Positions 2,132-38,412 of a stretch of DNA of 38,850 nucleotides are shown in pieces. Origin of the DNA: a virus. Its lineage: Duplodnaviria; Caudoviricetes. A program made the translations under genes and the position numbers. The stretch covers positions 1 through 38,850 of the IMG/VR virus record IMGVR_UViG_3300036783_000169, one strand, 5' to 3'. The notes under the pieces were generated by a model. It saw nothing but the letters and a program-made list of their open reading frames with translations. It was not told the origin of the DNA and did no database searches. Position 1 is the stretch's first letter; every line of letters begins with the position of its first letter.

Positions 2132-2226
2132 GCGCCGTAGTTCGTGTGGGCTACTGTGAGCCGTGGCCATCTTGGGCGCGCGCCGTAACTCGTCTGGGCT
2201 TTTCAGCCGTCACCTGCTTGGGCGCG
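2132..2226 (-). ncRNA. Two TIGR-like guide units (AGCAGGTG/GACGAGTT; AGATGGCC/CACGAACT)
   Basis: Four GCCCA-N8-ACGGC motifs with closing stems and a GAAA-capped loop hairpin; overlaps the stop codon of 2203-3006. Confidence 0.85.
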
Positions 2227-3006
2227 TTGCCGGATGGTGAGCTGTATTTCGGTGGCTCCGGGGAGCTGGCGTCGTAGTTTTTCGAGTTCGATGCCGAGGG
2301 CGACGCCGGGGCCGGCGGCGAACTGGTCGATGAGTTGGAGGGTGAGGACGACGGTGACTTGGGTGATGTCGCCGGGTGGGGTGACGGGTCCGTGGTCGTA
2401 GTCGTATGCCTCTGTGGTGGTGGGCGTGCCGCCGTTGTGACCGTGGGCTTCTGGTGCCGTCTCCGCATTGGGCGGCTGGCCTTGGAGTTCCTGGCCGAGC
2501 GTGTCCATCAGTTCCTGGCCGAGTGCGACCATCTCGCGCCATGCCTGGTCGCGTCCGGGTGAGTTGGCGGGGAGTTGCGTTGGGTGCTCTGCGGCGGTCA
2601 GCTCGTTGTCGCCGGGGCAGGTTTCTTGGTCGCGTCGGCGTTGTTCGCGGTCGCGTGCTGCTTGCTGTCTCGGGTTGGGCTGGGTGGGGGCTGGTTCTGT
2701 TACATCTGTAACACCGTTGCCGGTGTTGCGGATGTCTCGCATGACGGTGGGGGGGGAGCTTCCGGTGGCCTGGGCGATTTTGCGGTAGGTCATGCCGGTG
2801 GTGTGGAGGAGCTGGTGGATTTCGCGTCGGCGCGGGGCGGAGAAGCGGTCGGGGCCGAATTCTGCTTGTGCCCATCCGTCGACGCTGCGGTAGCCGAGGA
2901 CTTTCCAATCCTGTTCTTCGACGGCTTGGGCGTAGAGGACCGCGGTTTGCTGGAGTCCGAGGCGGATGTGTTCGGCGCGTTCGGCGGCGAGCTGCTTGGT
3001 GGTCAT
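2203..3006 (-). CDS. HTH DNA-binding protein, 267 aa
   Basis: GMTYRKIAQATGSSPPTVMRDIR is a typical helix-turn-helix; promoter at 3042-3058. Confidence 0.8.
   Translation of the reverse strand: MTTKQLAAERAEHIRLGLQQTAVLYAQAVEEQDWKVLGYRSVDGWAQAEFGPDRFSAPRRREIHQLLHTTGMTYRKIAQATGSSPPTVMRDIRNTGNGVTDVTEPAPTQPNPRQQAARDREQRRRDQETCPGDNELTAAEHPTQLPANSPGRDQAWREMVALGQELMDTLGQELQGQPPNAETAPEAHGHNGGTPTTTEAYDYDHGPVTPPGDITQVTVVLTLQLIDQFAAGPGVALGIELEKLRRQLPGATEIQLTIRQRAQAGDG
2428..2476 (-). ncRNA. TIGR-like unit inside the HTH gene (ATGCGGAG/CGGTCACA)
   Basis: GCCGCC-CA-N8-ACGGC-accagaa-GCCCA-N8-ACGGCGGC with a perfect 6-bp closing stem. Confidence 0.8.
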
Positions 3007-3041
3007 TAACTTGAACCGTTCAGGTGTGGATGGTACCTTCC

Positions 3042-3058
3042 ATCATACACCATGAGAC
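3042..3058 (-). promoter_or_regulatory. Promoter GTCTCATGGTGTATGAT, copy 2
   Basis: Identical to 1306-1322. Confidence 0.65.
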
Positions 3059-3361
3059 TGAAGCCTGACCTGGGGTTATGCACCTCCGAGGGTGACCGGC
3101 GAGCTGGGCAGGCAAGGCTGTGACCAGGCCCGATGCGACCAGCGCGCTTCTAAGGCGACCGGCCCGGGGGGGTTACCCCGGTACGGCCGTGGCCGGGTTA
3201 GGCGCTCTGGGGCCAGCTCACGAGCTCTCTTTGACGGGTGCTCCCGGACGCTCCTGGACGACCGGGGGCCGGTAACGGCGAGTAGCCGGGTCTTGACGTA
3301 CCGCCGTGCCCTGTGCGAGCGTGGCCGGGAACGCGCCGGCTAACACGGGAAAGGGATAACC

Positions 3362-3475
3362 ATGAAGCTAACCAAGGCAGGCATCGTCACCGCGCTGGTC
3401 GCGCTGGCCCTGGCCGCCGCGCAGCTGGCCGCCCACGCCGCCACGATGGCCCCCCGCTTCTACTACCGCGGCTAG
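3362..3475 (+). CDS. 37-aa secreted peptide MKLTKAGIVTALVALALAAAQLAAHAATMAPRFYYRG
   Basis: Not in the ORF track. GGGAAAGGGA RBS; basic N-region, hydrophobic core, AHA cleavage motif, short mature tail. Confidence 0.7.
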   Translation: MKLTKAGIVTALVALALAAAQLAAHAATMAPRFYYRG

Positions 3476-3490
3476 GGTGTGGCCCTCTGG

Positions 3491-3649
3491 TTAGTACCAG
3501 TAGCGGCGGCCGCCGACGGGCCCGTGGAAGTGGCCGAGCGCGAGCAGGGCCACGCCGAGGACCAGGATGATGATCCCGATGGTGACCAGGACCGACAGGG
3601 CGGGGACGACGACGCCGATGACGATGAGGATGAGACCGAGCAGGATCAT
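3491..3649 (-). CDS. 52-aa two-TM membrane protein, DUF6131-like
   Basis: MILLGLILIVIG...HGPVGGRRYWY. The C-terminal VGGRR[HY]xY resembles this actinobacterial family (from recall). Confidence 0.7.
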   Translation of the reverse strand: MILLGLILIVIGVVVPALSVLVTIGIIILVLGVALLALGHFHGPVGGRRYWY

Positions 3650-3661
3650 GGTGGTGTTTCC

Positions 3662-3838
3662 CTAGCTGAACAGGAGCGCGAACGAGACGAGCGCGGCCCC
3701 GGCTGCGACGAAGCTGGCCCACACGTTGCGGGGTTCGACGACCCAGGCGAGGACGGCTGCGACGGCGAAGAGGATAGCGGCGATCAGGATGAGCACGCCG
3801 TGCGCACCGCTGACCGTGAAGCTGGATGCGAGGTTCAC
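3662..3838 (-). CDS. 58-aa two-TM membrane protein
   Basis: Two hydrophobic helices; tandem with 3491-3649. Confidence 0.6.
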   Translation of the reverse strand: MNLASSFTVSGAHGVLILIAAILFAVAAVLAWVVEPRNVWASFVAAGAALVSFALLFS

Positions 3839-3997
3839 GGTCGTCGTCGTACCCTGCGGGCGGTTTCTAATCCTTGACCCTTGCTGTCTCCGGGCGTACG
3901 CTTCGGATCAGCGGATACCCGGCGGATAGAAGTCCGTGGTGCGGGTTCACCTTCCAGGGCAACGTACTGGGCCTCATGCCTATGCCCAGGGAGTGAC

Positions 3998-4258
3998 ATG
4001 GAAGACCGCTGGAACCCGCCCCGCCGCAAAGGTGAATACGTGCTGGCTGCAATGCACGGAGCCAGCCAGAGCCACGGTGTCGAAGTACCGCGTGCTGATG
4101 AGCCGCCGCCAGAAAATACGGCGACTGATCCCGACACCCCTGAAGGCCGCAGCTTCATCGAGAGCCAGTCCCCCGAAGAACCGATGCAGCGACCCTCCGC
4201 AGCATGGGTAACCCTCATCACGATGAGGGGGAGTGGATTCCGTGATTCGCATGCGTGA
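3998..4258 (+). CDS. Possible hypothetical protein
   Basis: GGGAG RBS before ATG 3998; no motif. Confidence 0.3.
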   Translation: MEDRWNPPRRKGEYVLAAMHGASQSHGVEVPRADEPPPENTATDPDTPEGRSFIESQSPEEPMQRPSAAWVTLITMRGSGFRDSHA

Positions 4259-4399
4259 GGACTTCGACGTGATCTGGCCTGACGGGGACCCGGTCATCGT
4301 CCGCAGGTACCGTCCGCGGCCCGTGCGCATCCCGATCCCGCGGCCACGTAACCCAGACAATCACGGCACGGCAACGGACTGCATGGTACGCTGACAGTC

Positions 4400-4828
4400 A
4401 TGGTAGCGCTCTCCGACATCGCCCGGTGGTGTTACAAGAACCCCGGCATCATCGACCCTGTACGTCTATCCGAAGAGACCGGTTATGACCGGCGTACCTG
4501 CGGCGCGGCCCTCGCCAACCTGTGCGCACTGCAACCCAGGATCTGCGAGCGCGTCGGCCGCGGTGTCTACCTGATCCGCCCGCCCGAGCTCGTCCCCGAA
4601 CCGGAGGCATCCATGTCAGCACCCACGTCGGCACCGGAACCGGCGCAGCTCCCGTTCGACAACCACGACGGGGAGTTCACCGAGATCATTCCTGATGATG
4701 AGGACTTGTATCCGCCGTTCAAGATCCTGATCTACGATCACTGGCGCTCCAAGCGCGGCGAGACCTGGTACCGGGTCAAGGATGAGCACGGCAAGCGGGG
4801 CGTGTTCCGGTGGATCGATGACGAATGA
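4400..4828 (+). CDS. Winged-HTH-like DNA-binding protein
   Basis: Leaderless (TACGCT 7 nt before ATG); LSEETGYDRRTCGAALANL...ERVGRGVY. Confidence 0.7.
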   Translation: MVALSDIARWCYKNPGIIDPVRLSEETGYDRRTCGAALANLCALQPRICERVGRGVYLIRPPELVPEPEASMSAPTSAPEPAQLPFDNHDGEFTEIIPDDEDLYPPFKILIYDHWRSKRGETWYRVKDEHGKRGVFRWIDDE

Positions 4829-4842
4829 CCGGCGTTACAGTT

Positions 4843-5154
4843 TTACCCGTCGGTGATGCCCCATTCGGTCATCCACTCGCGGACGCCGCGGAGCAGCTCC
4901 CCGGACGCCTCGGCTTCCCCGAGGGTGCGGAGCCGCCGGGCGAACCAGTCGTCGTCGCGGTCGACGCCGGCCAGGTCGGCGAGGACCTGGATCAGCAGCG
5001 GCACCAGGTCCACGCTGATCCCGTCGAACAGCCGCCAGTAGTCGGCGCGGTGGCCGTCGCGGCGGGCGCGGGCCATCGTCAGCGCGAGACGCACGGTGTC
5101 GGCCCACCGGGCGGCTTCGTCTGCCGCGGTGATCTTCCGCGGCGGCACGGTCAC
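4843..5154 (-). CDS. Hypothetical protein
   Basis: GTG overlaps the TGA of 5151-5297; typical codon usage. Confidence 0.6.
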   Translation of the reverse strand: MTVPPRKITAADEAARWADTVRLALTMARARRDGHRADYWRLFDGISVDLVPLLIQVLADLAGVDRDDDWFARRLRTLGEAEASGELLRGVREWMTEWGITDG

Positions 5155-5297
5155 TTCGTCCTGGTCTGGTAGTTGGGGCATTTCCAGTGGCACCCGCGGT
5201 TGTGCTGCTCGCAGTGCCGCCGCCGGCCGCGGCGCTGCTGGCGGGCTTTGAGGCAGATCTGGCAGACGCACCCGCAGTGGGACTTGTCGCAGCTCAC
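5151..5297 (-). CDS. 48-aa Cys/His-rich protein
   Basis: MSCDKSHCGCVCQICLK...HCEQHNRGCHWKC; coupled to its neighbours. Confidence 0.55.
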   Translation of the reverse strand: MSCDKSHCGCVCQICLKARQQRRGRRRHCEQHNRGCHWKCPNYQTRTK

Positions 5298-5301
5298 CGG
5301 G

Positions 5302-5460
5302 TCACCGTATCTCGTAGCGGCACCAGCAGATGTGGTTGCCGTCGTGGCCGGGTTTGAGCATGCACCGGTGGAGGTGGCCGCCGTCTGGTTTCGGCGCTTC
5401 GGGGGGTGTCCAGGTGATGCGCCCGGTGCCGCCTCGCCATGTTTTCCCGCAACGCCTCAT
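5302..5460 (-). CDS. 52-aa Cys/His protein, leaderless
   Basis: TATGAT 6 nt upstream of ATG 5460; CxLxxGHxGxH motif. Confidence 0.6.
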   Translation of the reverse strand: MRRCGKTWRGGTGRITWTPPEAPKPDGGHLHRCMLKPGHDGNHICWCRYEIR

Positions 5461-5585
5461 TGCAGTATCATAGTGTATGCGGTAGGGTGGTGGTGGATGG
5501 TCACCCCTGCTGGGCGGCCCGGGTAAGCCGTAACGCGCACCAGGGCCCAGAGGCACCAGCTCGGAGGTCTGTCTCTGGTGGATGG

Positions 5586-5621
5586 GACAGCCCCCGCTCC
5601 CCTCGGAGAGCGGGGGCTGTC
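5586..5621. terminator. 14-bp GC hairpin
   Basis: GACAGCCCCCGCTC/GAGCGGGGGCTGTC. Confidence 0.65.
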
Positions 5622-5722
5622 TTGCGGCCTGCTTCACCCGCACGGCATCCGCCTCACGGCGTACCGAGATTCCGGTTACCTTCCGTATCTAGTTAGTGGA
5701 CGCGTACCAGGCCGCACGCTAT

Positions 5723-5766
5723 GGCCGTTATACTCTTGGGCCACCTGGCCGTTGAAAGGGTGAGCC
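5723..5766 (-). ncRNA. Stand-alone TIGR-like unit (CCCTTTCA/AGAGTATA)
   Basis: GGCTCA-N8-ACGGCCA-gg-TGGCCCA-N8-ACGGCC; TATATT -10 at 5781-5786. Confidence 0.8.
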
Positions 5767-5818
5767 TTCACGTAAGGCATAATATACCCCATTCTGTCTC
5801 TTGCTGTATAGTGGAGAC

Positions 5819-6022
5819 ATGAACTTGCAGACAATCGTTGCTATCGCGGCCGTCGTCATGCTCGCCGTGCTCGGCCACTCGATCTGGCACACGGAACTCG
5901 TCGCGGTCGCCGGTTTCTTCGTCAATATCTTCACCGGCGCGCACGTCACAGGCTTACAGAGGTTTACGGGGGTTTACGGCGGATGCTCGGACTCTGGCTC
6001 GCCATCGGCGGGTTCTGGCTGA
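5819..6022 (+). CDS. Small membrane protein, leaderless
   Basis: TATAGT -10 just upstream; hydrophobic N-terminus. Confidence 0.55.
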   Translation: MNLQTIVAIAAVVMLAVLGHSIWHTELVAVAGFFVNIFTGAHVTGLQRFTGVYGGCSDSGSPSAGSG

Positions 6023-6072
6023 CTCTCATGGTCATCGCGTGGATCTACGTGATCTGGCGGCGCGACCAGTGA
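5983..6072 (+). CDS. 29-aa single-TM peptide
   Basis: MLGLWLAIGGFWLTLMVIAWIYVIWRRDQ; GTGA overlap with the next gene. Confidence 0.45.
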   Translation: MLGLWLAIGGFWLTLMVIAWIYVIWRRDQ

Positions 6073-6212
6073 GCAAGGTCAAAGTGCTCTGCCCCCGCTG
6101 CCTCGGCACCGGGGAAACATGGAAGAGCATCATGCTGCGGAGGAAGCGGAACAAGGTCACCTGCCCGCAGTGCAAGGGGAAGAAGTACCTGTGGGTCAGC
6201 AAGCCGACGTAG
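6069..6212 (+). CDS. DnaJ-type Zn-finger mini-protein
   Basis: CPRCLGTG and CPQCKGKK. Confidence 0.65.
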   Translation: MSKVKVLCPRCLGTGETWKSIMLRRKRNKVTCPQCKGKKYLWVSKPT

Positions 6213-6343
6213 GAGACTGGCGGGATGTCCCGTTTCCCCCGGAGCTGCCACGGACCCTCGAAGAGCAGATCAACGATCTTGTCCTCGTGAACGCCCAGCT
6301 GCGGGAGAAACTAGCCCGGTACGGATGGAAGGACGAAGGGTAA
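6191..6343 (+). CDS. Small hypothetical protein
   Basis: Coiled-coil-like; abuts ATG 6344. Confidence 0.45.
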   Translation: MGQQADVGDWRDVPFPPELPRTLEEQINDLVLVNAQLREKLARYGWKDEG

Positions 6344-6694
6344 ATGCTGCTGATCAGGATGCCGGACAGCGGGGAACGGCGGCAGCGGGAACGGCGGCGC
6401 AGGCAGCGGGCGCTGCTGTACCTCGTGCCGTGCCCGATCATCCTCACGGCGGTGTTCATCGCCCCGAACTGGTGGCTGAGGACGGCCGCGATCGTGGTTG
6501 AGGCGTGGTGGATATGGGCGTGCCGCACTGACCCGCGTATCCGGTTACGGTTCGCGGGCGGTCTCGCGGTCGAGCTGGCCGATCAGCTCAGCGGTGCACA
6601 TGCAGCAGAGCCGCCAGTGGCGGCGTGCGCCGTCGACGGTGAAAGAGTGACCGCAGACCATGGGCTGACTGCACATCGCGCACATTTCCACTGA
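6344..6694 (+). CDS. Membrane protein (3' part overlaps an antisense ORF)
   Basis: Arg patch followed by two hydrophobic segments. Confidence 0.45.
   Translation: MLLIRMPDSGERRQRERRRRQRALLYLVPCPIILTAVFIAPNWWLRTAAIVVEAWWIWACRTDPRIRLRFAGGLAVELADQLSGAHAAEPPVAACAVDGERVTADHGLTAHRAHFH
6545..6691 (-). CDS. 48-aa CxxC...CxxC protein
   Basis: GGGAGG RBS and TATGAT upstream; CAMC...CCMC. Confidence 0.5.
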   Translation of the reverse strand: MEMCAMCSQPMVCGHSFTVDGARRHWRLCCMCTAELIGQLDRETAREP

Positions 6695-6712
6695 CTCACC
6701 CTCCCACTTTCC

Positions 6713-6741
6713 GTATCATAGGGTATCATAGGGGGTATGAC
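6713..6741. promoter_or_regulatory. Bidirectional -10 (TATCAT/TATGAT); leaderless promoter of the tas operon
   Basis: GTATCATAG twice; 6723-6741 is 18/19 identical to 13862-13880. Confidence 0.65.
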
Positions 6742-7174
6742 TCGGCACTCAATATCCACCTATGTGCGTGAGCAGTTCTTCGCCGGCGTCCACGACCCCG
6801 AAGAAATCGCCCGGCGCTACCTCACCGACGCGCTCGAAGCGGACGACCCCGACGCGTGGCTCCTCCCCGCCATCCGCCACAGTGTCGGCGCGAGCTTCTC
6901 GTCCATCCAGGCCGCTGTCCGCGGGACCCAACCAAGTAACGGCACCGCCCAAGACGCAAGCGGTCCCGCGCGGCAGCGCCATAACGAGGGGTACGTGTAC
7001 AACCCAGACACCCGCGAATGGATTCCGCTCGGGAAGGCCACCATCAGCGACTTCACCGCCGCGATCCGGTGGCACGAGAAGATGATCGAAGGGCACCACG
7101 CCACGATTGACGAGTACCGGACGTACATCAAGAAGATACGGGAAGCGGGTGTCACATGCCTTGACGAGACGTGA
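6737..7174 (+). CDS. Hypothetical protein, first gene of the tas operon
   Basis: Leaderless ATG; carries an in-frame guide unit. Confidence 0.8.
   Translation: MTRHSISTYVREQFFAGVHDPEEIARRYLTDALEADDPDAWLLPAIRHSVGASFSSIQAAVRGTQPSNGTAQDASGPARQRHNEGYVYNPDTREWIPLGKATISDFTAAIRWHEKMIEGHHATIDEYRTYIKKIREAGVTCLDET
6920..6970 (+). ncRNA. TIGR-like unit inside CDS (ACCAAGTA/AGACGCAA)
   Basis: Perfect 9-bp stem CGCGGGACC/GGTCCCGCG around two CCA-N8-RCGG motifs. Confidence 0.8.
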
Positions 7175-7532
7175 GCGGGGCCCACCGCACTAACGGCCCC
7201 CTGCGGGCTCACAAATGCTACGGCCCCGCCCACGGACGGTACGGACCCATGGTGGTCTCAAGCCACACACGGCGGGGCCCATTGCGGATACGGCGCAAGC
7301 CCACGGTTCAAACGGCCCAGAAGCAACACGGCGCAAGCCCAGGGTTCCAACGGCCGCCCAGACCACCAGCGGCTTCACGGAAGCTCACACCAGTAACGGC
7401 GGTACGGCCCAATGGCGCAACGGCACACAGATGCCCATGGATGTCACGGCCACTCCCGCCCAGGCTACAGACGGCCAGGCCGCCCAGTGTTGCTGCGGCC
7501 AACTGGCTCATACCGGGTGCGGCGGGCTGGCC
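7175..7532 (+). ncRNA. TIGR-like array 1: 7 dual-spacer units plus 1 single spacer
   Basis: 15 consecutive YCA-N8-RCGG motifs with unique spacers; loop hairpins (e.g. GGC-GCAA-GCC) alternate with edge stems. Confidence 0.92.
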
Positions 7533-7555
7533 AGACGGAAAGGAAACGAAGGACA

Positions 7556-8479
7556 ATGACAGTACAAGCGGACGCTCATGGTGCCAGCGGCGAACACGCC
7601 CAGCGATCAAGCGGCGTCCCCGCTGACAACCCCTACCCGTGGGGCAATCTGGCGACGTTCCGTTCGGCTGCGGAAGGGCTGACGGACGCGATCAAAGCAC
7701 GGTGCAGCGTCGAGAACCGGGTCAAGCGGGGTGGCGGCGCGGTCGACGTGGTCCAGGCCAATGCGATGGTGCAGGCCGCGCGGCAGCTCGAGGAAACCTA
7801 CCGCGACCTGCTCATGGCCGCGTACCAGAGCCAGGTCCCCGCCGAGGTGCAGGACTGGGCGGCGGGCATCCCCGGGCTCGCGACCGGTGAGCTGTTCCCC
7901 CGGATGCTCGGGATGATCGGCCACCCCCGCATCGCTATCCCGTGGGTCTGGGAAGAGGGAGCGGACGCACCGGTCCCCGCCGGGCCCCCGTACATCAGGG
8001 ACCGGCACCAGCAGCTGTGGCAATACTGCGGGGCAGGTGACCCCCGGACCCGCCCGTCGGTGCTCGGGCACCGGCCCGACCGGGACGAACTCCTCAAGGC
8101 GGGGAAACTCAAATCGGTCCGCCCCCTGCTATTCACGTTCAGTGCATACCTTGTCCGGATGCACACCCGGTCCGACGCGGTCGCCGAGTCTGCGTATTAC
8201 AAGGTGTATGAGGACGCGCGGGCGGAAGCGGCGGGGCATACCGGCAAGTGCATACCCGGTTCGTGGCCGTCGACGTGCGCGGGTACCCACCGCAGGCACG
8301 AGTACCTGTGCAAGAACACGAAGCGGCCCCCGATGAACTCGAACGGGTGCGGGACGGTCCTGCACCCCGAGTGGGGTGAACCGGGGTCACCGTGGCGACC
8401 CGGACATCTGAATATGCATGCTCACAGGGTTCTTCACAAAGAGTTTCTGCATGACCTGTGGCGGATCAGCGCACTGTGA
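7556..8479 (+). CDS. tasA: TasA-like Nop/IS110-C-domain RNA-binding protein without nuclease domain, 307 aa
   Basis: GAAGGA RBS. N-terminal coiled coil, then WAAGIPGL, LWQYCG, YYKVYEDAR and GHLNMHAHRVLHKEFLHDLW. No RuvC/DEDD N-terminus. Flanked by dual-spacer arrays. Confidence 0.8.
   Translation: MTVQADAHGASGEHAQRSSGVPADNPYPWGNLATFRSAAEGLTDAIKARCSVENRVKRGGGAVDVVQANAMVQAARQLEETYRDLLMAAYQSQVPAEVQDWAAGIPGLATGELFPRMLGMIGHPRIAIPWVWEEGADAPVPAGPPYIRDRHQQLWQYCGAGDPRTRPSVLGHRPDRDELLKAGKLKSVRPLLFTFSAYLVRMHTRSDAVAESAYYKVYEDARAEAAGHTGKCIPGSWPSTCAGTHRRHEYLCKNTKRPPMNSNGCGTVLHPEWGEPGSPWRPGHLNMHAHRVLHKEFLHDLWRISAL
7570..7619 (+). ncRNA. TIGR-like unit within the first ~21 codons of tas (TGGTGCCA/GCGATCAA)
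   Basis: GGACGCT-CA-N8-GCGGC...GCCCA-N8-GCGGCGTCC. Confidence 0.8.
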
Positions 8480-8484
8480 GGACC

Positions 8485-8727
8485 GGGCCGGGCCGCCCAG
8501 GGCACCTACGGCGGCGACGCTCATGCACGATACGGTGGCCTGGCCCACGATCAAGACGGCGCAAGCTCAGTGACGCAACGGCCAGCCGCCCAGAGTTGTC
8601 ACGGCACTCAGTGGCTCAAGCACGATACGGCGGTACGGCTCAGGAGGGTTACGGAAACCAAGGGAATCACGGCCACGCCGCCCAACACGCTGACGGCAGG
8701 ATCACTGCTCACTGTCAAGACGGCGGC
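8485..8727 (+). ncRNA. TIGR-like array 2: 5 units
   Basis: 10 motifs; first unit closed by a 13-bp stem with G.U pairs. Confidence 0.92.
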
Positions 8728-8754
8728 TGCCCGCATAGGAAAGGACAAGGACGC

Positions 8755-9471
8755 ATGACCCACTTCACGGTTCTGGTGTGCTGCAAGGACCCGGGTGACC
8801 TGGACGGGGCGCTGGCCCCGTTCGACGAGAACGACGAGAACGCGGAGAACCCCCGGTGGGACTGGTGGGTGATCGGCGGCCGGTGGGCCGGCAGTCTCCT
8901 CATCAAGCCGGGGCATGAGGCGGAGGTCATCATGCCCGGGGCGGCGACCTGGTCGACCCCGGAAATCCGCGACGGGTACTGCGACGGGGGGCCGAAACGG
9001 GCCATCGACGTGGACCGGATGCGGGACGACGCCGCCCGCAACGCGCGTATCCGGTTCGGGGAGTACGCGAAGCTCACCGAGGGTACCCCCGACCCGCTGC
9101 CGTGGAAGACGTTCGCGGATAACATCAGCGAGGGAAACGGGTACACGGTCCAGCAGGCCCGCGACGAGTACAACGCGCAGCCGAGGATCGCGGTCCTCAA
9201 GGGCACGACGTTCGACCGCCTGTTCAGCGACCCGGCCGAGGAGTTCGCCTGCACGGAGCAGGTGTACGCCGAACGGGTCCGTGCGCAGGCCGTCCCCGGG
9301 TACGCGCTGCTGACCACCGACGGGAGGTGGCTGGCACCCGGTGAGATGGGCTGGTGGGGCATGTCAACCGACGAGCAGCCCGACCGGATCGGATACTGGG
9401 AGGTCGCCAACGCCTACATCGACCAGCTGTCAGACGACACGTGGCTGATCATGACCGATTGTCATATTTAG
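8755..9471 (+). CDS. Conserved phage hypothetical protein, 238 aa
   Basis: GGAAAGGA RBS; MTHFTVLV, WDWWVIGGRW, GEMGWWG and C-terminal DCHI motifs of a common phage family. Confidence 0.85.
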   Translation: MTHFTVLVCCKDPGDLDGALAPFDENDENAENPRWDWWVIGGRWAGSLLIKPGHEAEVIMPGAATWSTPEIRDGYCDGGPKRAIDVDRMRDDAARNARIRFGEYAKLTEGTPDPLPWKTFADNISEGNGYTVQQARDEYNAQPRIAVLKGTTFDRLFSDPAEEFACTEQVYAERVRAQAVPGYALLTTDGRWLAPGEMGWWGMSTDEQPDRIGYWEVANAYIDQLSDDTWLIMTDCHI

Positions 9472-9476
9472 ACCGG

Positions 9477-9614
9477 ACGGTGGCCTGGCCCACGCTGGAA
9501 ACGGCCAGCCGCCCATGCAGCTAACGGCACGTACCTGCTCAAGCTGGTGACGGCGGCTGGCCCAAGATGGCCACGGCGGCACACGACCGCTCACACGAGC
9601 TACGGCCCAGCCGC
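9477..9614 (+). ncRNA. TIGR-like array 3: 1 single spacer plus 2 units
   Basis: 5 motifs; 11-bp stem GGCCAGCCGCC/GGCGGCTGGCC. Confidence 0.9.
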
Positions 9615-9638
9615 ATACGAAAGGAGTACGATACTCAC

Positions 9639-9863
9639 ATGGCTGAGGAGCGGAAACCACTCGAACGGGTCACGGTCAACCTTGTCCCGCGCGCGTCGAA
9701 AGCCCTCCAGCTCGCCGTCGACATCACCGGCGACTCCAAGACCGACACCATCAACCGGGCCATCCAGATGTACGCATACTTTGAGCACACCGTACGGGAA
9801 GGCGGCACCATCCTGGTCCGCGACCAGGACGGGGGTGAGCTGTCCGTCGTCCGCTGGTACTGA
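9639..9863 (+). CDS. Ribbon-helix-helix (CopG-like) regulator
   Basis: AAAGGAG RBS; RVTVNL...SKTDTINRAI. Confidence 0.8.
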   Translation: MAEERKPLERVTVNLVPRASKALQLAVDITGDSKTDTINRAIQMYAYFEHTVREGGTILVRDQDGGELSVVRWY

Positions 9864-9870
9864 CCTGGCG

Positions 9871-10059
9871 CGGCCCATGCTTGTTACGGCCCTGGCGGCT
9901 CAGAGAGGTGACGGCCGGCCCACGCCGTTAACGGCCCATGGTGGCCCAAGCTTGTAACGGCCGGCCCAGGCGAACTACGGCACATGCTGCTCATTGTCGA
10001 TACGGCCAGGCCGCTCATAGCAGTGACGGCAACCGCCCATGGTAGCAGCGGCGGCCTGG
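9871..10059 (+). ncRNA. TIGR-like array 4: 4 units
   Basis: 8 motifs with edge and loop stems. Confidence 0.92.
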
Positions 10060-10063
10060 ACGG

Positions 10064-10098
10064 ACGGGAGCCCGGCGCATCACGCGCCGGGCTCCCGT
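10064..10098. terminator. Terminator hairpin ending the tas operon
   Basis: 15-bp perfect stem between convergent transcription units. Confidence 0.8.
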
Positions 10099-10110
10099 TG
10101 CGGTCCTGGG

Positions 10111-10536
10111 TCAGTACTGCTGCCTCACCGGCCCGTGACGGTCGAACGTGACGGGCTGCGGTGCGAAGAAGTCGAACCCGCAGATTTCCTCGAGCTGGCG
10201 GAGCTCGGCCCGCTGGTAGCGGTTGAGGTGCCGGAACTGCTGCAGGAACAGGAGCTGGTCGAGGAGCCGCTCGTCGGAGCGGGTGCAGAAGTCCCGGTCC
10301 CGGTTGCGGTCCCGGTCGCGCTGGTCGGTGACTTCGCGCTGGTCGCGCTGGTCGCGGTTGAACTGCTCGTCGCGGTTGCGGTTGCGGTCGAAGTTGAACT
10401 GCTGCTGGTCGCTGCCGCCGCTGCTGAAGTGGACGGGCTGCGGGACCTCACCCGCGGACGCGGACGCGGCGCTGACCGCGAGACCACCGCCGAGCACCCC
10501 CAGAACCGCGAAGATTACCATGAGTCGCCTGAACAT
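10111..10536 (-). CDS. Secreted protein with RD/RN low-complexity tract
   Basis: GGAGG RBS; signal peptide ending ASA. Confidence 0.7.
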   Translation of the reverse strand: MFRRLMVIFAVLGVLGGGLAVSAASASAGEVPQPVHFSSGGSDQQQFNFDRNRNRDEQFNRDQRDQREVTDQRDRDRNRDRDFCTRSDERLLDQLLFLQQFRHLNRYQRAELRQLEEICGFDFFAPQPVTFDRHGPVRQQY

Positions 10537-10717
10537 GTACTGAACCTCCCCTGGGAAAGACACAACGCACCCCACGCTAGACCCCTGCGGGTCTCATGTC
10601 GACGCACGGAACCTGTTACGCAACCGTTTTCAGCGTCGTGTAATCCGATGACCCTGCTGTGGGAGTCTTCTACGTGGGCCCTCAGGCCCGCGCACAGACC
10701 CACAGAAAGGAAACCAG

Positions 10718-11446
10718 ATGCGATTTACGCGCACGTGGAAGATCGCGGTGGTATCCGGGATCTCGGCTCTCGCGCTGGCCGCCGCTGGCACCACCGCGTT
10801 CGCCGGGACGACCCCGACCCCGCACGACACGCCGACCGTATCCCCCAACTTCGGCTACTCCCCGCCCCCCACCCCGCGGCCGGTGCAGCTGCGTGACTGG
10901 CAGTTCGACCTGCAGCAGTCCCAGATCGACGTGACCCAGGTCAACGACGTCGACGGGTTCGGCGCGGTCCCGTTCAACGGCTGGACCGACGTGCAGCTGT
11001 CCCCGAACGTCGACCGGTTCCAGCGCGGCGGGAACTCCATCACCCTCTGGCACGACTCGCTGCCGTTCCCGACCGTGGAGGCGGACACCTGCACCATCAA
11101 TTTCGACCAGAACGAAGGCAGCTTCCGGGTCATCGCCGGGACCGGCATAGGGGCGGGCTGGCGTTCCGTGAATGGCCGCTTCAACCTGCGCGGTGTCATC
11201 TCCGTCCGTGACCGCAACGGCGTCTGCCCGCTCCGGTTCGTGTCGCTGGGCACCATCCTCCGCGACGTGGAGTTCAACCGGCCGCTGCCCGGCCAGGTGA
11301 CGTTCGCTGACTTCGCGGTCCAGGGGGACGCGAAGCTGTTCCGCACGGTGCAGCCGCTGCCCGTGCCGCACCCCACCAGGACCGTGAAGCCCCACGAGAC
11401 GGTTTCACCGCACGAGACCGTGACTGTCGCGCCGGCTGACGGCTGA
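10718..11446 (+). CDS. Secreted beta-rich protein, 242 aa
   Basis: GAAAGGA RBS; signal peptide ending AFA; P/T linkers. Confidence 0.8.
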   Translation: MRFTRTWKIAVVSGISALALAAAGTTAFAGTTPTPHDTPTVSPNFGYSPPPTPRPVQLRDWQFDLQQSQIDVTQVNDVDGFGAVPFNGWTDVQLSPNVDRFQRGGNSITLWHDSLPFPTVEADTCTINFDQNEGSFRVIAGTGIGAGWRSVNGRFNLRGVISVRDRNGVCPLRFVSLGTILRDVEFNRPLPGQVTFADFAVQGDAKLFRTVQPLPVPHPTRTVKPHETVSPHETVTVAPADG

Positions 11447-11460
11447 CCGTCCCGCTGAAC

Positions 11461-11496
11461 GCGCGGCTCCAGCCGGGGGAGAGGCTGGAGCCGCGC
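11461..11496. terminator. Bidirectional terminator hairpin
   Basis: 14-bp perfect stem between convergent genes. Confidence 0.75.
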
Positions 11497-11501
11497 CTTC
11501 G

Positions 11502-12941
11502 TCAGTACATCTCGAAAAGCGGCATCTGATCCGGGGGGACCGGAGGGGGGCGCGGGACGCCGAGAGCCCGCGCCCTTTCCCCCGCATCCACGGTCCTCCA
11601 CTTCGCGGCCAGCCGGCAGTAATCGGCGGACATGTCGACGCTGATCCCGATCCGGTCGTGGACTGACGCGACGAGCGCGGTGGTGCCCGTCCCGCCGAAC
11701 GGGTCCAGCACGACCGCGGGCCTGGTCTCGGCGGGTTCCCACTGCTCCCAGTGGTAGTCCCGCACGTTCTGGCGTTGCGGCCAGGCACGGTGCCCGCCGA
11801 CCCCGGCGTCCTCGCGGCGCTGCTCCGTCTCCTCACCGCGCATGTACATGCGGTCGGGGGTGACGGTCGGCTGTTTCCGTTCGGGATGGTCGGTGTACGG
11901 GGTGCAGTCGCACGCCCACCCCTGGATGACCGCGTCGGTGTACCCGTACGTGTACTGCGCGCCCCGCGCCGCCCGCCCGTGCGCACGTATCCGCTCATGC
12001 CCCTCATACTTGGAACCCTCAGCCCCGGACAGCCGCCCCCGGTTCAGTTCCACCAGGTTCTTGTCCACGACCGGGAACCGGCCCTTACCGCACGCCGTGC
12101 AGATCCCCGGCGGGGACCACCCCAGGATCACGCGGCGGCACAGCTCCGGGGGGAACGCGGCGTAATGGTCGACGCCCACCCACTCCGGGACCACCAGCGG
12201 AGCCGACGGGATCGGCCAGATCGACCCGGGCAGCCTGCCGAGGGGGTGCGGGTTGTCCAGCTGGAAATTGACCGCGCGGACCTCTTCGACGTCCATCCGC
12301 GGGACGTGAACCCGCCGCGTCCCGGAACGCGCGGTCGGCTGCCCCCCCGTAACCCCGGGCACCCGGATCATGTCGATCGCGGAATAGTACTTGGGCTGCT
12401 TCGTGAAGTGGTAAACGGTCGTGTGGGACGTGCGGGCCCGGTCGGCGACCGACTCCGGGGTCTCGTTCACGTGGTGCCAGATAATCTCTTGCCGCAGGAT
12501 GAGACCGAGGAAGTCGGTGCAGCCGATCGCGTATCTTTGCGGCATTTGCATGCGGGATTTGCCCCGGAACCCGGCCGGGATACCGCCGCCCGCCCGCGCG
12601 GTCCCGGCGGGCTGGTCCGGTGAGACGAACCCCCGTCCCACGTTCGCGGTCCTGGAGATGCTCTTGGACAGCCCGTTCATCGCGCCCGCGTACGTGTCAC
12701 CCAGCTCCACGAACAGCGACCCCGACGGTTTCAAAACACGCAGCCATTCATGGGTGAAGTCCAGCAGCCGCTTGATGAACTCCCGCGGATCACTCTCCGA
12801 CCCGAACTGGCCCGCGTAGTGGTCCCCGCCGTCCTGATACGACCGCAGCCGGTAGAACGGCGGCGACGTGCAGATCAGGTCCACGCTGTTGTCCGCCAGC
12901 GGGATGTGCCCCGCGTCACCGCGCAGCACCACCGCTCTCAC
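11502..12941 (-). CDS. N4-C/N6-A DNA methyltransferase (beta class)
   Basis: TSPPF catalytic motif, HYAAFP, and C-terminal VLDPFGGTGTT SAM motif. Confidence 0.92.
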   Translation of the reverse strand: MRAVVLRGDAGHIPLADNSVDLICTSPPFYRLRSYQDGGDHYAGQFGSESDPREFIKRLLDFTHEWLRVLKPSGSLFVELGDTYAGAMNGLSKSISRTANVGRGFVSPDQPAGTARAGGGIPAGFRGKSRMQMPQRYAIGCTDFLGLILRQEIIWHHVNETPESVADRARTSHTTVYHFTKQPKYYSAIDMIRVPGVTGGQPTARSGTRRVHVPRMDVEEVRAVNFQLDNPHPLGRLPGSIWPIPSAPLVVPEWVGVDHYAAFPPELCRRVILGWSPPGICTACGKGRFPVVDKNLVELNRGRLSGAEGSKYEGHERIRAHGRAARGAQYTYGYTDAVIQGWACDCTPYTDHPERKQPTVTPDRMYMRGEETEQRREDAGVGGHRAWPQRQNVRDYHWEQWEPAETRPAVVLDPFGGTGTTALVASVHDRIGISVDMSADYCRLAAKWRTVDAGERARALGVPRPPPVPPDQMPLFEMY

Positions 12942-13186
12942 AGCTCATCACCGAACGTCTGGGTGAAGCTGTCATCATCCCGGTAATCGAAGTGACGGAC
13001 ACCGGCGACGACCATCTCACCGCAGTACCCGCAGTGGTACTGCCCGAGCGGGACACCGACCAGCTGCTGCGGCTCCCATGGCCACGGGCACGGCTCACCC
13101 TCCTGCGTCAGCGGCGGGTCCAGGTCCGGACGCTTCGTGCAGTCAATATCAACCGCGTCCTTCGGCTCGATCTCATGCCACTTCAC
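12938..13186 (-). CDS. Hypothetical Zn-ribbon protein
   Basis: HCGYCG; overlap-coupled at both ends. Confidence 0.65.
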   Translation of the reverse strand: MKWHEIEPKDAVDIDCTKRPDLDPPLTQEGEPCPWPWEPQQLVGVPLGQYHCGYCGEMVVAGVRHFDYRDDDSFTQTFGDEL

Positions 13187-13470
13187 TTCGGCAGCACCAT
13201 CCCTCCGCACTTGTAGCAAAATCCTTTGATGACGCGGGCGCGGGGGTGGTCGCACGCCGTCTGTGCTCTGGGCGTTCCCGCCGTTGTTCCCGTGGGCGTG
13301 TGACCGGGTGCCGTTTCCTCTGTGGGCATTGCTGCCGTAGCGGCGTTGAGCACATGGTCGATCAGGTCAGCCACCCACCGGGCCCGCGACTGGCCCCCGC
13401 GCACATCATCGAGTTTCGAGGCTGTCTCTGCGGAAACACGGACGCTGATCACGTTGTCTCGCCGGGGCAT
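13183..13470 (-). CDS. RHH regulator with C-terminal Cys/His motif
   Basis: VISVRVS...SRARWVADLI; CDHP...CYKC; the linker consists of two guide units. Confidence 0.75.
   Translation of the reverse strand: MPRRDNVISVRVSAETASKLDDVRGGQSRARWVADLIDHVLNAATAAMPTEETAPGHTPTGTTAGTPRAQTACDHPRARVIKGFCYKCGGMVLPK
13253..13353 (-). ncRNA. Two TIGR-like units inside the RHH gene (ACGCCGCT/CAGAGGAA; CGGGAACA/GAGCACAG)
   Basis: Four GCYCA-N8-ACGGC motifs; GCAA and GGAA tetraloops; closing stems. Confidence 0.85.
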
Positions 13471-13539: not shown

Positions 13540-13689
13540 TCACTTCTTCCCGTGCGGCGTGCTCTCCGGGTTCCGCTGCTTGCGTGCCGGATTGTTCCTG
13601 GTCCGGCGGTGCTCAGCGGCGTACCGGGCGCACTTGACGCGGTGGCGTCCGTGCTTACGGTTTTTCTTTCCGCCCTTGTGTGCGGGCAT
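13540..13689 (-). CDS. 49-aa highly basic protein
   Basis: MPAHKGGKKNRKHGRHRVKC...; GGGAGG upstream. Confidence 0.6.
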   Translation of the reverse strand: MPAHKGGKKNRKHGRHRVKCARYAAEHRRTRNNPARKQRNPESTPHGKK

Positions 13690-13772
13690 CTGGGGGTCTC
13701 ACCCCCCTCCCTGCTGGCAGTTACCTGTCCGGCAGGGTGCGCTCGCTGCGCATGGACCCTCCTCTCGAAAGG

Positions 13773-13828
13773 CCCAGGGCCGTCCCAGCTATGGGCTCAG
13801 ATAAGCCGTGGGGGTGATGGGCCCTGGG
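13773..13828 (-). ncRNA. Stand-alone TIGR-like unit (TCACCCCC/TAGCTGGG)
   Basis: 9-bp stem CCCAGGGCC/GGCCCTGGG; TATGAT upstream at 13864-13869. Confidence 0.85.
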
Positions 13829-14622: not shown

Positions 14623-14675
14623 TGATGCCCAGTGCTGGAACGGCGCAAGCCCAAAAATCCAACGGCATCACATGA
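14618..14675 (+). ncRNA. Single TIGR-like unit (GTGCTGGA/AAAATCCA)
   Basis: TGATGCC/GGCATCA stem, GGC-GCAA-GCC loop, flanked by CATGA direct repeats. Confidence 0.85.
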
Positions 14676-14827
14676 ACCACATCGCGGTCAGCGGCCACGG
14701 CGACGTTTACGCGGCGTGGCTGCTGTCCCGGTGGCTGTGGCATCAGATCGGCTGGTGGTCGATACCGGTCACGGGCGCAGCCGCCGGGATCGTCGCGTGG
14801 GTCAGGACATACTTTGAGAGGAGGTGA
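14672..14827 (+). CDS. Small Trp-rich membrane protein
   Basis: Hydrophobic, 51 aa. Confidence 0.55.
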   Translation: MNHIAVSGHGDVYAAWLLSRWLWHQIGWWSIPVTGAAAGIVAWVRTYFERR

Positions 14828-14829
14828 CC

Positions 14830-15057
14830 ATGAGCGTCTACGAGCAGGCCGGTCACTGCGAGAGCTACTGTGATCATGGCGGCATGTGCGTGCTGCCGCT
14901 CGGGCATGAGGGGATGCACGACAGCAAGTACTGCACGTGGCCCGACGCGGACGCGGTGACCCGCGAGGTCGCCGACGAACGGCTGCGTGACCAGCCGATG
15001 GGTTCTCTCGTCCTCATGGCGCAGGAACTGTACGAGCGTATCCACCGGGAAGACTGA
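14830..15057 (+). CDS. Hypothetical protein with CxLxxGHxGxH motif
   Basis: GGAGGT RBS. Confidence 0.7.
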   Translation: MSVYEQAGHCESYCDHGGMCVLPLGHEGMHDSKYCTWPDADAVTREVADERLRDQPMGSLVLMAQELYERIHRED

Positions 15058-15060
15058 CCG

Positions 15061-15252
15061 GCGGCTCATTGTTCGAACGGCCCGTAGTGGCTCATGATCG
15101 TGGCGGCCGCTTATAACTGAACATGTCCGGGGTGGCCCAATCCCAGTACGCGGCCCGTAGGTGGCTCACGTTCGGCGCGGCCACCCCGGCTCCGACCGGG
15201 GCTCACCGCAGTGGCGGCCGTCAATCGGCTCAAACGTGAGACGGCCCTGGTC
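15061..15252 (+). ncRNA. TIGR-like array 5: 3 units
   Basis: Closing stems of 6, 11 and 10 bp; first half of unit 2 is irregular. Confidence 0.85.
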
Positions 15253-15498
15253 AGGGGGTGCCCTGGACCTGGCTCCAAATGGCAGGGTAAAGGCTAACGC
15301 ATAGCGGGCGCCGGGGCACCACCTGTGGTACGCTAAAAGACAGAACGCAGCCTCTTCGTACAGCACAGGCTTGCTGGCACCGGTCACGGGAACAGTCCCG
15401 TGGGGGTAATAGCCAGCGGGGCCCGGTACGCATCCTCGTCCTTGTCCTTGTCGTCGTTCTCAGCTTCTTCACAGCCGCAGTCCGTCTACGTCACCACC

Positions 15499-15602
15499 GG
15501 TACGGCTTGTTTCCAGAGGTTGCCGGTTCGAATCCGGCCCGCGCCTCCAGCATGGCGCGGTAGCTCAACGGCAGAGTGCTGGTTATCAGCTTCGACCGTG
15601 CC
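15499..15602 (+). ncRNA. Circularly permuted tRNA-like RNA (YrlA-like)
   Basis: Order is T arm (GCCGG-TTCGAAT-CCGGC), acceptor stem CCGCGCC/GGCGCGG closed by a TCCAGCAT loop, then D arm. CCAG/CTGG replaces the anticodon arm; outer stem GGTACGG/CCGTGCC. Confidence 0.7.
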
Positions 15603-15630
15603 ACCGTGACGCCGGGAAGATGCGGACAGC

Positions 15631-15703: not shown

Positions 15704-15709
15704 GTAAAT

Positions 15710-30172: not shown

Positions 30173-30234
30173 CCCCGCCCCGGCCGTGCAGACTGTGAGC
30201 GATGAGGCCGCTTGGGCTGTGGGCCAAGACGGGG
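30173..30234 (-). ncRNA. Stand-alone antisense TIGR-like unit (CAGCCCAA/CAGTCTGC)
   Basis: 13-bp stem with three G.U pairs that form only on the minus strand; TATCAT at 30244-30249; lies within short ORF 30105-30272. Confidence 0.85.
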
Positions 30235-30812: not shown

Positions 30813-30874
30813 TCCCGTCCTGGCCGTTTCATTTCTGAGTCACAGGACCGTCCACCAGATGAGCCAGGACGGGA
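30813..30874 (-). ncRNA. Stand-alone antisense TIGR-like unit (TCTGGTGG/GAAATGAA)
   Basis: 13-bp stem TCCCGTCCTGGCT/GGCCAGGACGGGA; TATCAT at 30884-30889. Confidence 0.85.
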
Positions 30875-37719: not shown

Positions 37720-38412
37720 GTGGCGAAGCACCCGGCGCACAAGCGGACCAAGGCGCAAGCCGCCGCGGCGGTGAAGTTCGCCGCTGCCGGACGCGCATCG
37801 CAGGCTAAGAAGCGGGCGGCGGAGAAGGCGAAGGGCCTGCCGACCAGGACAGCGAAGCAGACGCAATCGACCGCGAAATTCGCCGCTGCCGGACGGGCCG
37901 CTCAGGCTAGGAAGCGGGCCGGGCTGAAACCGCTGCCGAAAGCTACCCGGGCACTGGCAGGCGACCAGGCCGTCAGACGCATGGGCCGTGAAGCCGTTTC
38001 GCGGTTGGGCCCGGTCGCCTGCCTACCGGTTAACCCTTACATGATACTGGCTGAGACGAATTGGACGCAAGGCTGCTGTGCGGCTACGGCCATCGCCTAC
38101 CACCTGTACGCCCATACTGGCATCATGGCGTCCCAAGGGGATGTGCGTGAGTTGCACGATGCCGTTGCCGACCCCAGCGGCGCGCGCATCCCCGAACTAC
38201 TCGAAGCAGCCTGCGACGGGTTCGCCGGGGTCCGGCTGGCCCGGTTCTGGCCGCTGGACACGCCGCTGCCCGGCAGCATCGCGGGCCTGACCGTGCCGGC
38301 AGGGTCGCACGCCGTCCTGCTCCTGTCCGGGGCGGCGTGCGTCTCCTGGGGCCGCGTCCGCCCCTGCGCGGCCGCCGAGGAGGCGTGGTGGGCGGAATGG
38401 GAATGCCAGTGA
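37720..38412 (+). CDS. Protein with basic N-terminus and papain-like C-terminal motifs
   Basis: KFAAAGRA twice; QGCCAATA, SHAVLL, VSWG. Confidence 0.6.
   Translation: MAKHPAHKRTKAQAAAAVKFAAAGRASQAKKRAAEKAKGLPTRTAKQTQSTAKFAAAGRAAQARKRAGLKPLPKATRALAGDQAVRRMGREAVSRLGPVACLPVNPYMILAETNWTQGCCAATAIAYHLYAHTGIMASQGDVRELHDAVADPSGARIPELLEAACDGFAGVRLARFWPLDTPLPGSIAGLTVPAGSHAVLLLSGAACVSWGRVRPCAAAEEAWWAEWECQ
37956..38023 (-). ncRNA. Antisense intragenic TIGR-like unit (ACCGCGAA/TGCGTCTG)
   Basis: 16-bp stem with one G.U on the minus strand; TATCAT at 38041-38046. Confidence 0.88.

Follow-up and report, generated by a model that had tools for sequence, protein, structure and literature searches.

Guide units of a stem-loop TIGR-TasA system in variable linkers of four phage genes

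The accessible text of two TIGR papers poses as an open question by what route TIGR systems gain, update, and express their guides. In the 38,850-nt stretch of phage genome analyzed here (the window), guide units lie in intergenic arrays and also, in frame, within protein-coding genes including tas, raising the question of how such units come to sit in coding sequence and what they do there. The sequence-only reading of this DNA had proposed dual-coding mRNAs, Tas-dependent autoregulation through excision of the guide, and/or units tolerated in linkers.

The TIGR-TasA system and its guide units

The AF2 model of TasA has a pLDDT of 91 overall, with residues 1–20 poorly ordered (44–59), and a Foldseek search with it returned TasH or TasR at all of ranks 1–10 (E 4e-4 to 6e-3, TM 0.44–0.62), with IS110 structures scoring below Tas (E >= 0.096). 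An IS110 transposase, to which a PHROG 4285 "transposase" match had pointed, was rejected, there being no N-terminal RuvC-like DEDD domain ahead of the coiled coil. No N-terminal HNH or RuvC is present, merely 28 residues preceding the conserved W29. The protein ends 5 residues past W302, the end of the last helix, so that the Y/H processing loop is missing; stem-loop Tas is described as lacking this loop (Xu et al., bioRxiv 10.64898/2026.09.09.750476, accessible text). Among 62 aligned proteins, 38 have at most 6 residues after the W302 equivalent and 13 have more than 15. A PDB sequence search with Tas gave 0 matches, Tas relatives were not found in GTDB genomes, and no relatives of tas or gene 6737 were found among annotated phages.

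The window holds 32 two-spacer guide hairpins (Table 1). Box C is CCA or UCA, box D is CG, and a C-G pair closes each; the corresponding pattern for unit halves (C-YCA-N9-CG-G), counted as a pair, occurs 49 times with 9-nt spacers when overlapping occurrences are included, compared with about 0.1 expected (Markov shuffles, mean 0.08–0.12) and with 0–1 pairs at each of the remaining spacer lengths between 5 and 14 nt. A feature outside the search pattern is in agreement: a purine at spacer position 9 was found in 11/11 in-gene halves and 37/37 array halves versus 63/120 background halves (p = 0.002). Stem-loop TIGR units are recognized by having boxes C and D separated by 9-nt spacers, two per unit, and a palindromic outer stem at least about 5 bp long; the spacer arrangement is present here, and the in-gene units have outer stems of 5, 5, 10, 8, 10, and 4 bp (one mismatch allowed), with modest folding (z −0.4 to −3.0) where MFE folds were run. 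Rfam and ARAGORN reported nothing but a tRNA. The system belongs to the known stem-loop TIGR-TasA type, which binds DNA under RNA guidance.

Table 1. Genes, guide units, and arrays in the window (positions in nt)
Feature	Position	Strand	Remarks
Two guide units, HTH gene 3′ end	2135..2222	-	2183–2222 spans stop codon
HTH-like gene	2203..3006	-	267 aa; Pfam HTH_38 match, E 8e-4, failing the cut-off; has homologues
Guide unit in HTH gene	2432..2472	-	Codons 179–192, in frame
Solo unit	5725..5764	-	Own -10-like hexamer; stretch replaced in strain X2
tas companion gene 6737	6737..7174	+	145 aa; first gene of predicted TIGR operon
Guide unit in gene 6737	6927..6963	+	Codons 64–76, variable linker, in frame
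Intergenic stem-loop array, 7 units	7181..7522	+	Between gene 6737 and tas
tasA gene	7556..8479	+	307 aa, Nop-domain Tas, no nuclease domain
Guide unit in tas	7575..7614	+	Codons 7–20, in frame
Intergenic array, 4 units	8496..8723	+	After tas
Two further intergenic arrays	9489..10051	+	2 and 4 best-stem units; flank gene 9639
RHH-like gene	13183..13470	-	95 aa, leaderless start
Guide unit 2 in RHH-like gene	13257..13296	-	Codons 59–72, linker with pLDDT<50
Guide unit 1 in RHH-like gene	13311..13350	-	Codons 41–54; invariant Leu41 codon serves box C
Solo unit	13780..13821	-	Own TACAAT -10; upstream of RHH-like gene
Three intergenic units	14628..15244	+	Downstream of DUF7873 gene
Solo unit	30184..30223	-	Own TATCAT -10, 15-bp stem
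Solo unit	30824..30863	-	Own TATCAT -10, 14-bp stem
Solo unit	37970..38009	-	Own TATCAT -10, 18-bp stem, fold z −5.2

The units are dispersed across at least 36 kb, beyond the tas-adjacent arrays, with 27 of the 32 sense to the surrounding genes and the remaining 5 just behind their own -10 hexamer. A -10 element of the unit's own, no more than 45 nt from box C, was seen in 5/5 solo units versus 1/29 others (p = 2e-5, with the solo group having been chosen after its sequences had been viewed) and in 0/6 in-gene sense units; a sigma-70 scanner called 3 promoters versus 1.9 expected and was not counted as evidence. A GC hairpin at ~10062–10098 follows the arrays that flank gene 9639.

Units within conserved genes

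Six hairpins lie in frame and on the sense strand within the HTH-like, 6737, tas, and RHH-like genes, as the sequence-only reading had noted; not every in-gene unit is sense, a further one (37970–38009) being antisense, within a ~20-codon in-frame insertion of the late-region gene 37720–38412. The stop-free, P/T/A/G-rich linkers noted in the sequence-only reading are present, but the letters of boxes and stems account for much of this character, the intergenic array units being mostly stop-free as well (14/17, 15/17, and 11/17 by frame).

The host proteins themselves give little support to the proposal that most bind nucleic acids. The HTH_38 match is sub-threshold, and gene 6737, whose profile matches many tas loci and for which an Atlas search returned no usable match, has no assignable function. 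The RHH-like protein combines an N-terminal ribbon-helix-helix-like part with a conserved C-terminal CxH...CxxC motif; RHH_1 matches 1/9 of its orthologues (E 0.0014), and a fold search with its model found no match at E<=0.001.

A different explanation, in which gene calling erred and the units truly lie between genes because of a downstream start or an earlier stop, draws on the spurious long ORFs that cross the intergenic arrays (e.g., 7171–7626), and is very improbable. The host ORFs have orthologues conserved on both sides of the units, with conserved domains on either side in the RHH-like gene and gene 6737, and 6/9 of the listed changes downstream of the HTH unit relative to the related strain X2 are synonymous. 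The start of tas at 7556, upstream of its unit as originally proposed, is preceded by a GAAAGGA-type RBS resembling those of genes 8755 and 9639, and the next in-frame ATG, GTG, or TTG is at codon 65, beyond the invariant R49, N54, and R55.

The alignment of homologues, a check set beforehand, bore out the view of units tolerated in linkers: orthologue linkers either have no unit or carry another number of units, whose spacers and frames differ on the same scaffold. A gene 6737 orthologue 63% identical to it (L026/L027) is without a unit, and another (L032) has a unit in the same linker. The HTH orthologue in L026 carries two units in its own linker, and the HTH homologues in L096 and L097 have none, although their genomes carry distant tas. 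In the RHH-like family a unit occurs in 1/7 distinct lineages, which alone shows 9-nt motif enrichment and also, as seen from L027, which overlaps it, a tas gene. Outside the HTH family, the orthologues found in tas-less phages retain the domains and have no units; tas is absent from G003 (97% complete) and G004 (81%), with positive controls detected in 5/5 cases, and the tas-free fragments G001 and G005–G008 show nothing in this respect, G007 being without tas though its lineage carries it. Unit absence was judged from the CDS sequences, since strict motif counts are lineage-specific (only 0–1 in five distant tas-bearing genomes) and alone cannot separate tas-positive from tas-less phages.

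Between strains, units are gained or lost at 5713–5818, 7318–7396, 7569–7612, and 14585–14672. The unit at 14628–14665 has a flanking 5-bp direct repeat and is missing from X2; in one filled/empty pair, the 53-nt difference in X2 is the length of the unit (48 nt) and a single copy of the 5-bp direct repeat together, for which MITE-like insertion with a 5-bp duplication and deletion between direct repeats would look identical. Overall, these sequence comparisons show that units within real, conserved genes replace or extend linkers and come and go among relatives.

Spacers in the RHH-like gene differ from those of X2 at 13/36 bases, compared with 1/44 in boxes and loops (p = 7e-5), 10/166 in other CDS bases (p = 8e-6), and 6/56 at third positions (p = 0.007, becoming 0.15 if the 6 unlisted differences of the region all fall at third positions), with no indel and no stop. 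One change breaks a box D in unit 1 in X2, suggesting that unit decay may be tolerated. Among the X2 differences listed for the HTH gene (14/16), none falls in its units, and a second strain pair gave 3/189 differences versus 24/5130 (p = 0.07); on these alignments, rapid spacer change is shown in the RHH-like gene only.

Origin and possible roles of the in-gene units

The explanation we favor, and regard as probable, is that the units spread through the phage genome and are retained where a linker tolerates them, and that the mRNAs of their host genes are likely a source of guides. Stem-loop TIGR units would spread across the genome and come to sit in the variable linkers of four genes, a copied unit surviving within a gene only if the frame is kept and the linker is under low constraint; such survival would be easy, because most units are stop-free. 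In-gene units would likely be transcribed within the mRNA, where TasA may bind the hairpin, and trimming or decay of the message, likely by host RNases, would leave a protected guide for the nuclease-free TasA. This release step is modeled on BlTasA, for which processing of intragenic guides was observed in E. coli (Xu et al., bioRxiv 10.64898/2026.09.09.750476, accessible text). The dual coding originally proposed is thereby upheld in the sense that the units are in frame inside conserved genes and are likely made from those genes' messages. The guide would then direct TasA to an 18-bp DNA site, blocking transcription; if the host gene were damped as well, this would be a by-product and not a selected function.

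Candidate sites were modeled as spacer A plus the reverse complement of spacer B. Within the window, three geometries with gaps of 0–2 gave nothing above shuffled spacers, in a search covering 38.85 kb of a phage genome whose relatives exceed 100 kb. Neither in the window nor, for 98 spacer pairs, in 1.45 Mb of related loci was there a match at 0–1 mismatches; at 2 mismatches there were 8, versus 3–11 under the null. A 15/18 match at 13699, near the unit at 13780–13821, was dropped as a target because the L051 unit at the equivalent place has unrelated spacers.

The in-gene units might alternatively act as operators, with TasA binding the mRNAs of tas, the companion, and two putative DNA-binding regulators, and blocking translation or triggering cleavage. 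The outer stem of the tas unit begins ~14 nt past the ATG; the close relatives L025 and L026/L027 have 4–5 halves between RBS+ATG and the tas core, and units stand directly behind RBS+ATG in 3/3 lineages of the tas subclade. Furthermore, each of the three non-tas hosts is the first gene behind its own promoter-like element (gene 6737 has a leaderless start behind a TATCAT -10), the 22.7-kb late region holds 0 sense and 3 antisense units, and L7Ae autoregulation (Daume et al., 2017, PMC5539422) and what has been suggested for archaeal C/D sRNAs that overlap protein genes (Lui et al., 2018, PMC6009581) provide precedents. However, only 10/35 scorable tas loci have at least 2 halves within the tas CDS, the other 25 having 0–1; the 63%-identical companion orthologue does without its unit; the unit is mid-gene, away from the initiation region, in 3/4 hosts; and the rapid spacer change in the RHH-like gene, of which an operator has no need, fits a guide better. 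The operator explanation is on this analysis quite unlikely, and autoregulation by excision is further disfavored by the absent Y/H loop that Tas-catalyzed cutting would use.

Inert passengers are a rather unlikely alternative: the in-gene units would then be copies, selfish or accidental in origin, that decay in linkers, are unfolded by ribosomes, and never mature into guides. Their patchy presence, the degenerate halves that end in AGG and flank the 2432–2472 unit on both sides, the broken box D, and the fact that most units are stop-free regardless would all suit such copies, but in the RHH-like gene boxes and loops are conserved while spacers outpace third positions, the promoterless in-gene units are all sense while the sole antisense one has its own -10, and every in-gene half keeps the position-9 purine.

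A bolder form of the favored account, which we consider distinctly doubtful, holds that the units are self-spreading cassettes colonizing promoters and linkers, with short target duplications at some of the insertions, that the mRNAs of the phage's own DNA-binding regulators become guide precursors bound by TasA, that through TasA the supply of guides is linked to a post-transcriptional brake on these genes, and that rapid point changes rewrite spacers where they stand. If true, it would explain how guides can be acquired and renewed in TIGR systems that have no adaptation genes. In this phage and its relatives one and the same gene occurs with and without a unit, which makes the question of how guides are gained, updated, and expressed directly testable.

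Comparison with known guide systems

Units inside tas are already known from a 2026 preprint; what is new here is their presence in unrelated genes. The intragenic tigRNAs of Xu et al. (bioRxiv 10.64898/2026.09.09.750476) are likewise stem-loop units that keep the frame of the tas CDS, at its 5′ end, its 3′ end, or internally, and lie in disordered regions; the accessible text also proposes a link between maturation and Tas translation and describes TasA as an RNA-guided repressor. In that text tas is the only host gene described, with supplements that may list others, whereas the hosts here include the companion gene, two unrelated other-strand genes ~4.5–5 kb from tas, and, in antisense, a late gene 30 kb off. 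Solo units with their own -10 reach 30 kb from tas here, while the methods of Xu et al. name 10-kb flanks; guides would thus be undercounted by any survey that covers just the flanks of tas or just intergenic DNA. "Intragenic" tigRNA was found in that preprint only, and autoregulation was not found in connection with TIGR, in a literature search of accessible texts.

With PlTasA (Faure et al., 2025, PMC12045711; Guan et al., bioRxiv 10.64898/2026.08.11.744272), as described in the accessible texts, the present system shares a Nop-only Tas, two 9-nt spacers between boxes C and D, and an outer stem. It differs in its box letters with C-G closure and in the spread of its units, which are not confined to tas-side arrays.

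The L7Ae case, a model for the operator explanation, concerns a guide-RNP protein that binds an RNA motif in its own mRNA; that motif is a 5′-UTR kink-turn established experimentally, whereas the motif here is in the CDS and its binding by TasA is putative (Daume et al., 2017, PMC5539422, accessible text). Archaeal box C/D sRNAs also overlap ORFs, sense or antisense, and mRNA excision, protein binding on the mRNA, and MITE-like guide spread have been discussed for them (Lui et al., 2018, PMC6009581, accessible text). Unlike the TIGR units, they guide RNA methylation and need L7Ae kink-turns, and coding constraint overrides their guide sequence, whereas spacers in one linker here change freely. 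The present phage appears to offer a compact case of protein/guide-RNA dual coding that parallels the archaeal C/D sRNAs overlapping ORFs.

The TasA locus and its phage

The window, a virus record of 38,850 bases with a GC content of 67%, carries genes for terminase, portal, and major capsid in its right half. The tas product has a fold predicted at high confidence, for which the ten top-ranked structural matches are all TasH or TasR; because only 28 residues lie ahead of the conserved core, it is assigned as a nuclease-free TasA. Its C-terminus extends 5 residues beyond the last helix. Stem-loop Tas proteins are reported to lack the Y/H loop that dual-repeat Tas proteins carry at the C-terminus and use for cutting their precursors (10.64898/2026.09.09.750476). 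Profile matches to the companion gene occur in 30/47 tas loci, nearly all directly upstream of tas.

Many early genes (at 5466, 5807, 6724, 13482, and 13863) apparently lack a leader, their ATG following a -10 hexamer by 5-8 nt, and are often arranged as divergent back-to-back pairs; together with GC content, these genes point to a probable actinobacterial host. Upstream of the RHH-like gene, a small Lys/Arg-rich ORF is conserved in the related loci L048 and L051, which also share with the window a conserved structured non-coding stretch containing one called tRNA-Lys and further tRNA-like pieces. A long non-coding region contains a palindromic GTTAGCCGCGCTAAC-type motif several times over, possibly as an origin or a protein-binding site.

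Features of the window discussed in the text
Feature	Position	Strand	Codons	Orientation
HTH gene	2203-3006	-
HTH gene unit			179-192	sense, in frame
HTH gene second unit			spans stop codon	sense, in frame
HTH helix-like segment	2510-2550	-	153-175
HTH linker, longer in X2	2580-2628
Companion gene (gene 6737)	6737-7174	+
Gene 6737 unit			64-76	sense, in frame
tas	7556-8479	+
tas unit			7-20	sense, in frame
RHH-like gene	13183-13470	-
RHH-like gene unit 1			41-54	sense, in frame
RHH-like gene unit 2			59-72	sense, in frame
Small Lys/Arg-rich ORF	13545-13690	-
X2 difference	5713-5818
X2 difference	7318-7396
X2 difference	7569-7612
X2 difference	14585-14672
Repeat-flanked unit	14618-14675
Structured stretch	15320-15710
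tRNA-Lys	15630-15704
Palindromic motif region	1660-1890
Gene 37720	37720-38412
Solo unit in gene 37720	37970-38009	-		antisense

Guide units within protein-coding genes

The paired C-YCA-N9-CG-G pattern of the guide hairpins occurs 49 times in the window when the spacers are 9 nt long, but no more than once at each other spacer length from 5 to 14; ~0.1 occurrences are expected by chance from Markov shuffles. Resolution by best outer stem gave 32 non-overlapping units, six of them sense and in frame within protein genes. Spacer position 9, which lies outside the search pattern, is a purine in 11/11 in-gene halves (single spacer sides) and 37/37 array halves, versus 63/120 background halves. 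The placement of units in the HTH gene, gene 6737, tas, and the RHH-like gene proposed by the sequence-only reading is confirmed; in-gene guide units are a real feature of this phage. The stop-free, P/T/A/G-rich linkers that it described are also present, but not as a sign of design: box and stem letters largely force the composition, and most intergenic units are stop-free (14/17, 15/17, and 11/17 in the three frames).

Judging from sequence conservation and start positions, the host genes are translated across their units. The next in-frame ATG/GTG/TTG of tas after 7556 is codon 65, beyond invariant residues, and the ribosome-binding site ahead of 7556 resembles those of genes 8755 and 9639, in agreement with the proposed start upstream of the unit. 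Invariant residues flank the RHH-like linker on both sides, with pLDDT <50 at residues 52-69 of the model; many loci retain gene 6737 on the upstream side of tas; and in the HTH gene, 6/9 of the differences listed downstream of the unit relative to the related strain X2 are synonymous. The suggestion that most host genes encode nucleic-acid-binding proteins is weak, as are the labels: an HTH_38 match (E 8e-4), an RHH_1 match in 1/9 orthologues, and no functional label for gene 6737, which matches phrog_4604 (E 8e-4).

Unit gain, loss, and spacer change

The RHH-like gene was found in nine viral loci representing seven distinct lineages. Only L051, which overlaps the tas-bearing L027 at 99.6%, has a linker unit—one instead of two, with different spacers—and 9-nt motif enrichment among these loci is likewise confined to it. 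No tas was found in the related genomes G003 (97% complete) and G004 (81%), with positive controls at 5/5. The gene 6737 orthologue of L026/L027 (63% identical) has no unit and a linker merely 3 residues shorter, and therefore units partly replace linkers, beyond simple addition; the distant L032 carries a unit in the same linker. The HTH orthologue of L026 contains two units in other frames. Of 48 tas loci, 35 (duplicates included) remained after removal of 11 without the N-terminus and 2 without a start; at least two halves lie inside the tas coding sequence in 10/35 and 0-1 in 25/35. Searches with terminase and gene 37720 added 81 loci, of which just two, both of the L051 lineage, contain more than a single strict pair.

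In X2, found in an independent soil run, 13/36 spacer bases of the RHH-like gene differ among the differences listed, versus 1/44 box and loop bases (p=7e-5), 10/166 other bases (p=8e-6), and 6/56 third positions outside units (p=0.007, or p=0.15 with worst-case placing of 6 further differences), with neither indels nor stops. Weighing against this contrast, the sole altered box is a box D that is broken by the change, another pair of very close strains gave only p=0.07, and none of the 14 differences listed falls in the HTH units. The X2 HTH linker has 30 additional bases, in frame. Units are missing or replaced in X2 at the tabulated sites; at the last, the strains differ by 53 nt, exactly the length of the 48-nt unit together with one of the two 5-bp direct repeats that flank it. 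Either an insertion that duplicated its target or a deletion across the repeats would fit, and the site is a possible clue to the route of gain and loss.

A short helix-like segment directly before the HTH-gene unit appears again, with translated units on either side, in the extended N-terminus of the Tas homologue P0002 (BLASTP E 2e-6), suggesting that recombination at units may move flanking coding pieces between genes.

Possible expression and roles of the units

In five isolated minus-strand units, a group picked after the sequences were viewed, box C is always preceded, at a distance of 16-37 nt, by a TAnnnT hexamer that matches the -10 elements of the leaderless genes; a comparable hexamer occurs in 1/29 other scored units and in 0/6 in-gene sense units. 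One of these solo units lies within gene 37720, in a stretch of ~20 codons absent from the orthologues in G002, G003, and G004. The other 27 units are sense relative to surrounding genes, and every unit is therefore placed for possible transcription in the guide direction, from its own promoter or a host transcript. Promoter-plus-unit modules are also seen in the related phage L051 (2850-3650, 7200-7330, and 9200-9400); among them are a divergent module that is present in duplicate and an array of seven units that runs antisense to the late genes and carries -10-like hexamers repeatedly.

The best reading, considered reasonably probable, is that units spread through the phage genome, are retained inside genes where linkers tolerate them, and supply guides from host-gene mRNA. 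Orthologue linkers without a unit favor this tolerated-insert half of the earlier proposal. Its other half, autoregulation through in-gene units, keeps a measure of support from where the tas unit sits and from partly comparable precedents, namely the archaeal RNA-binding protein L7Ae (PMC5539422) and archaeal C/D sRNAs overlapping ORFs (PMC6009581), but is improbable, being unconserved and having no need of variable spacers. That the units are inert passengers would accord with their patchy presence and the broken box; the conserved scaffold and the orientation rule argue against it, making it rather unlikely. No targets of the spacers were found in the window or in 1.45 Mb of related loci.

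If guides are indeed supplied from mRNA, they would be released by host RNases, with TasA protecting the guide, since the Y/H loop is absent and guides inside the gene of BlTasA undergo processing, as the same source states (10.64898/2026.09.09.750476). In the literature searched, no description was found of units in unrelated genes or of promoter-driven solo units far from tas; units inside tas itself have already been described in that source (10.64898/2026.09.09.750476).
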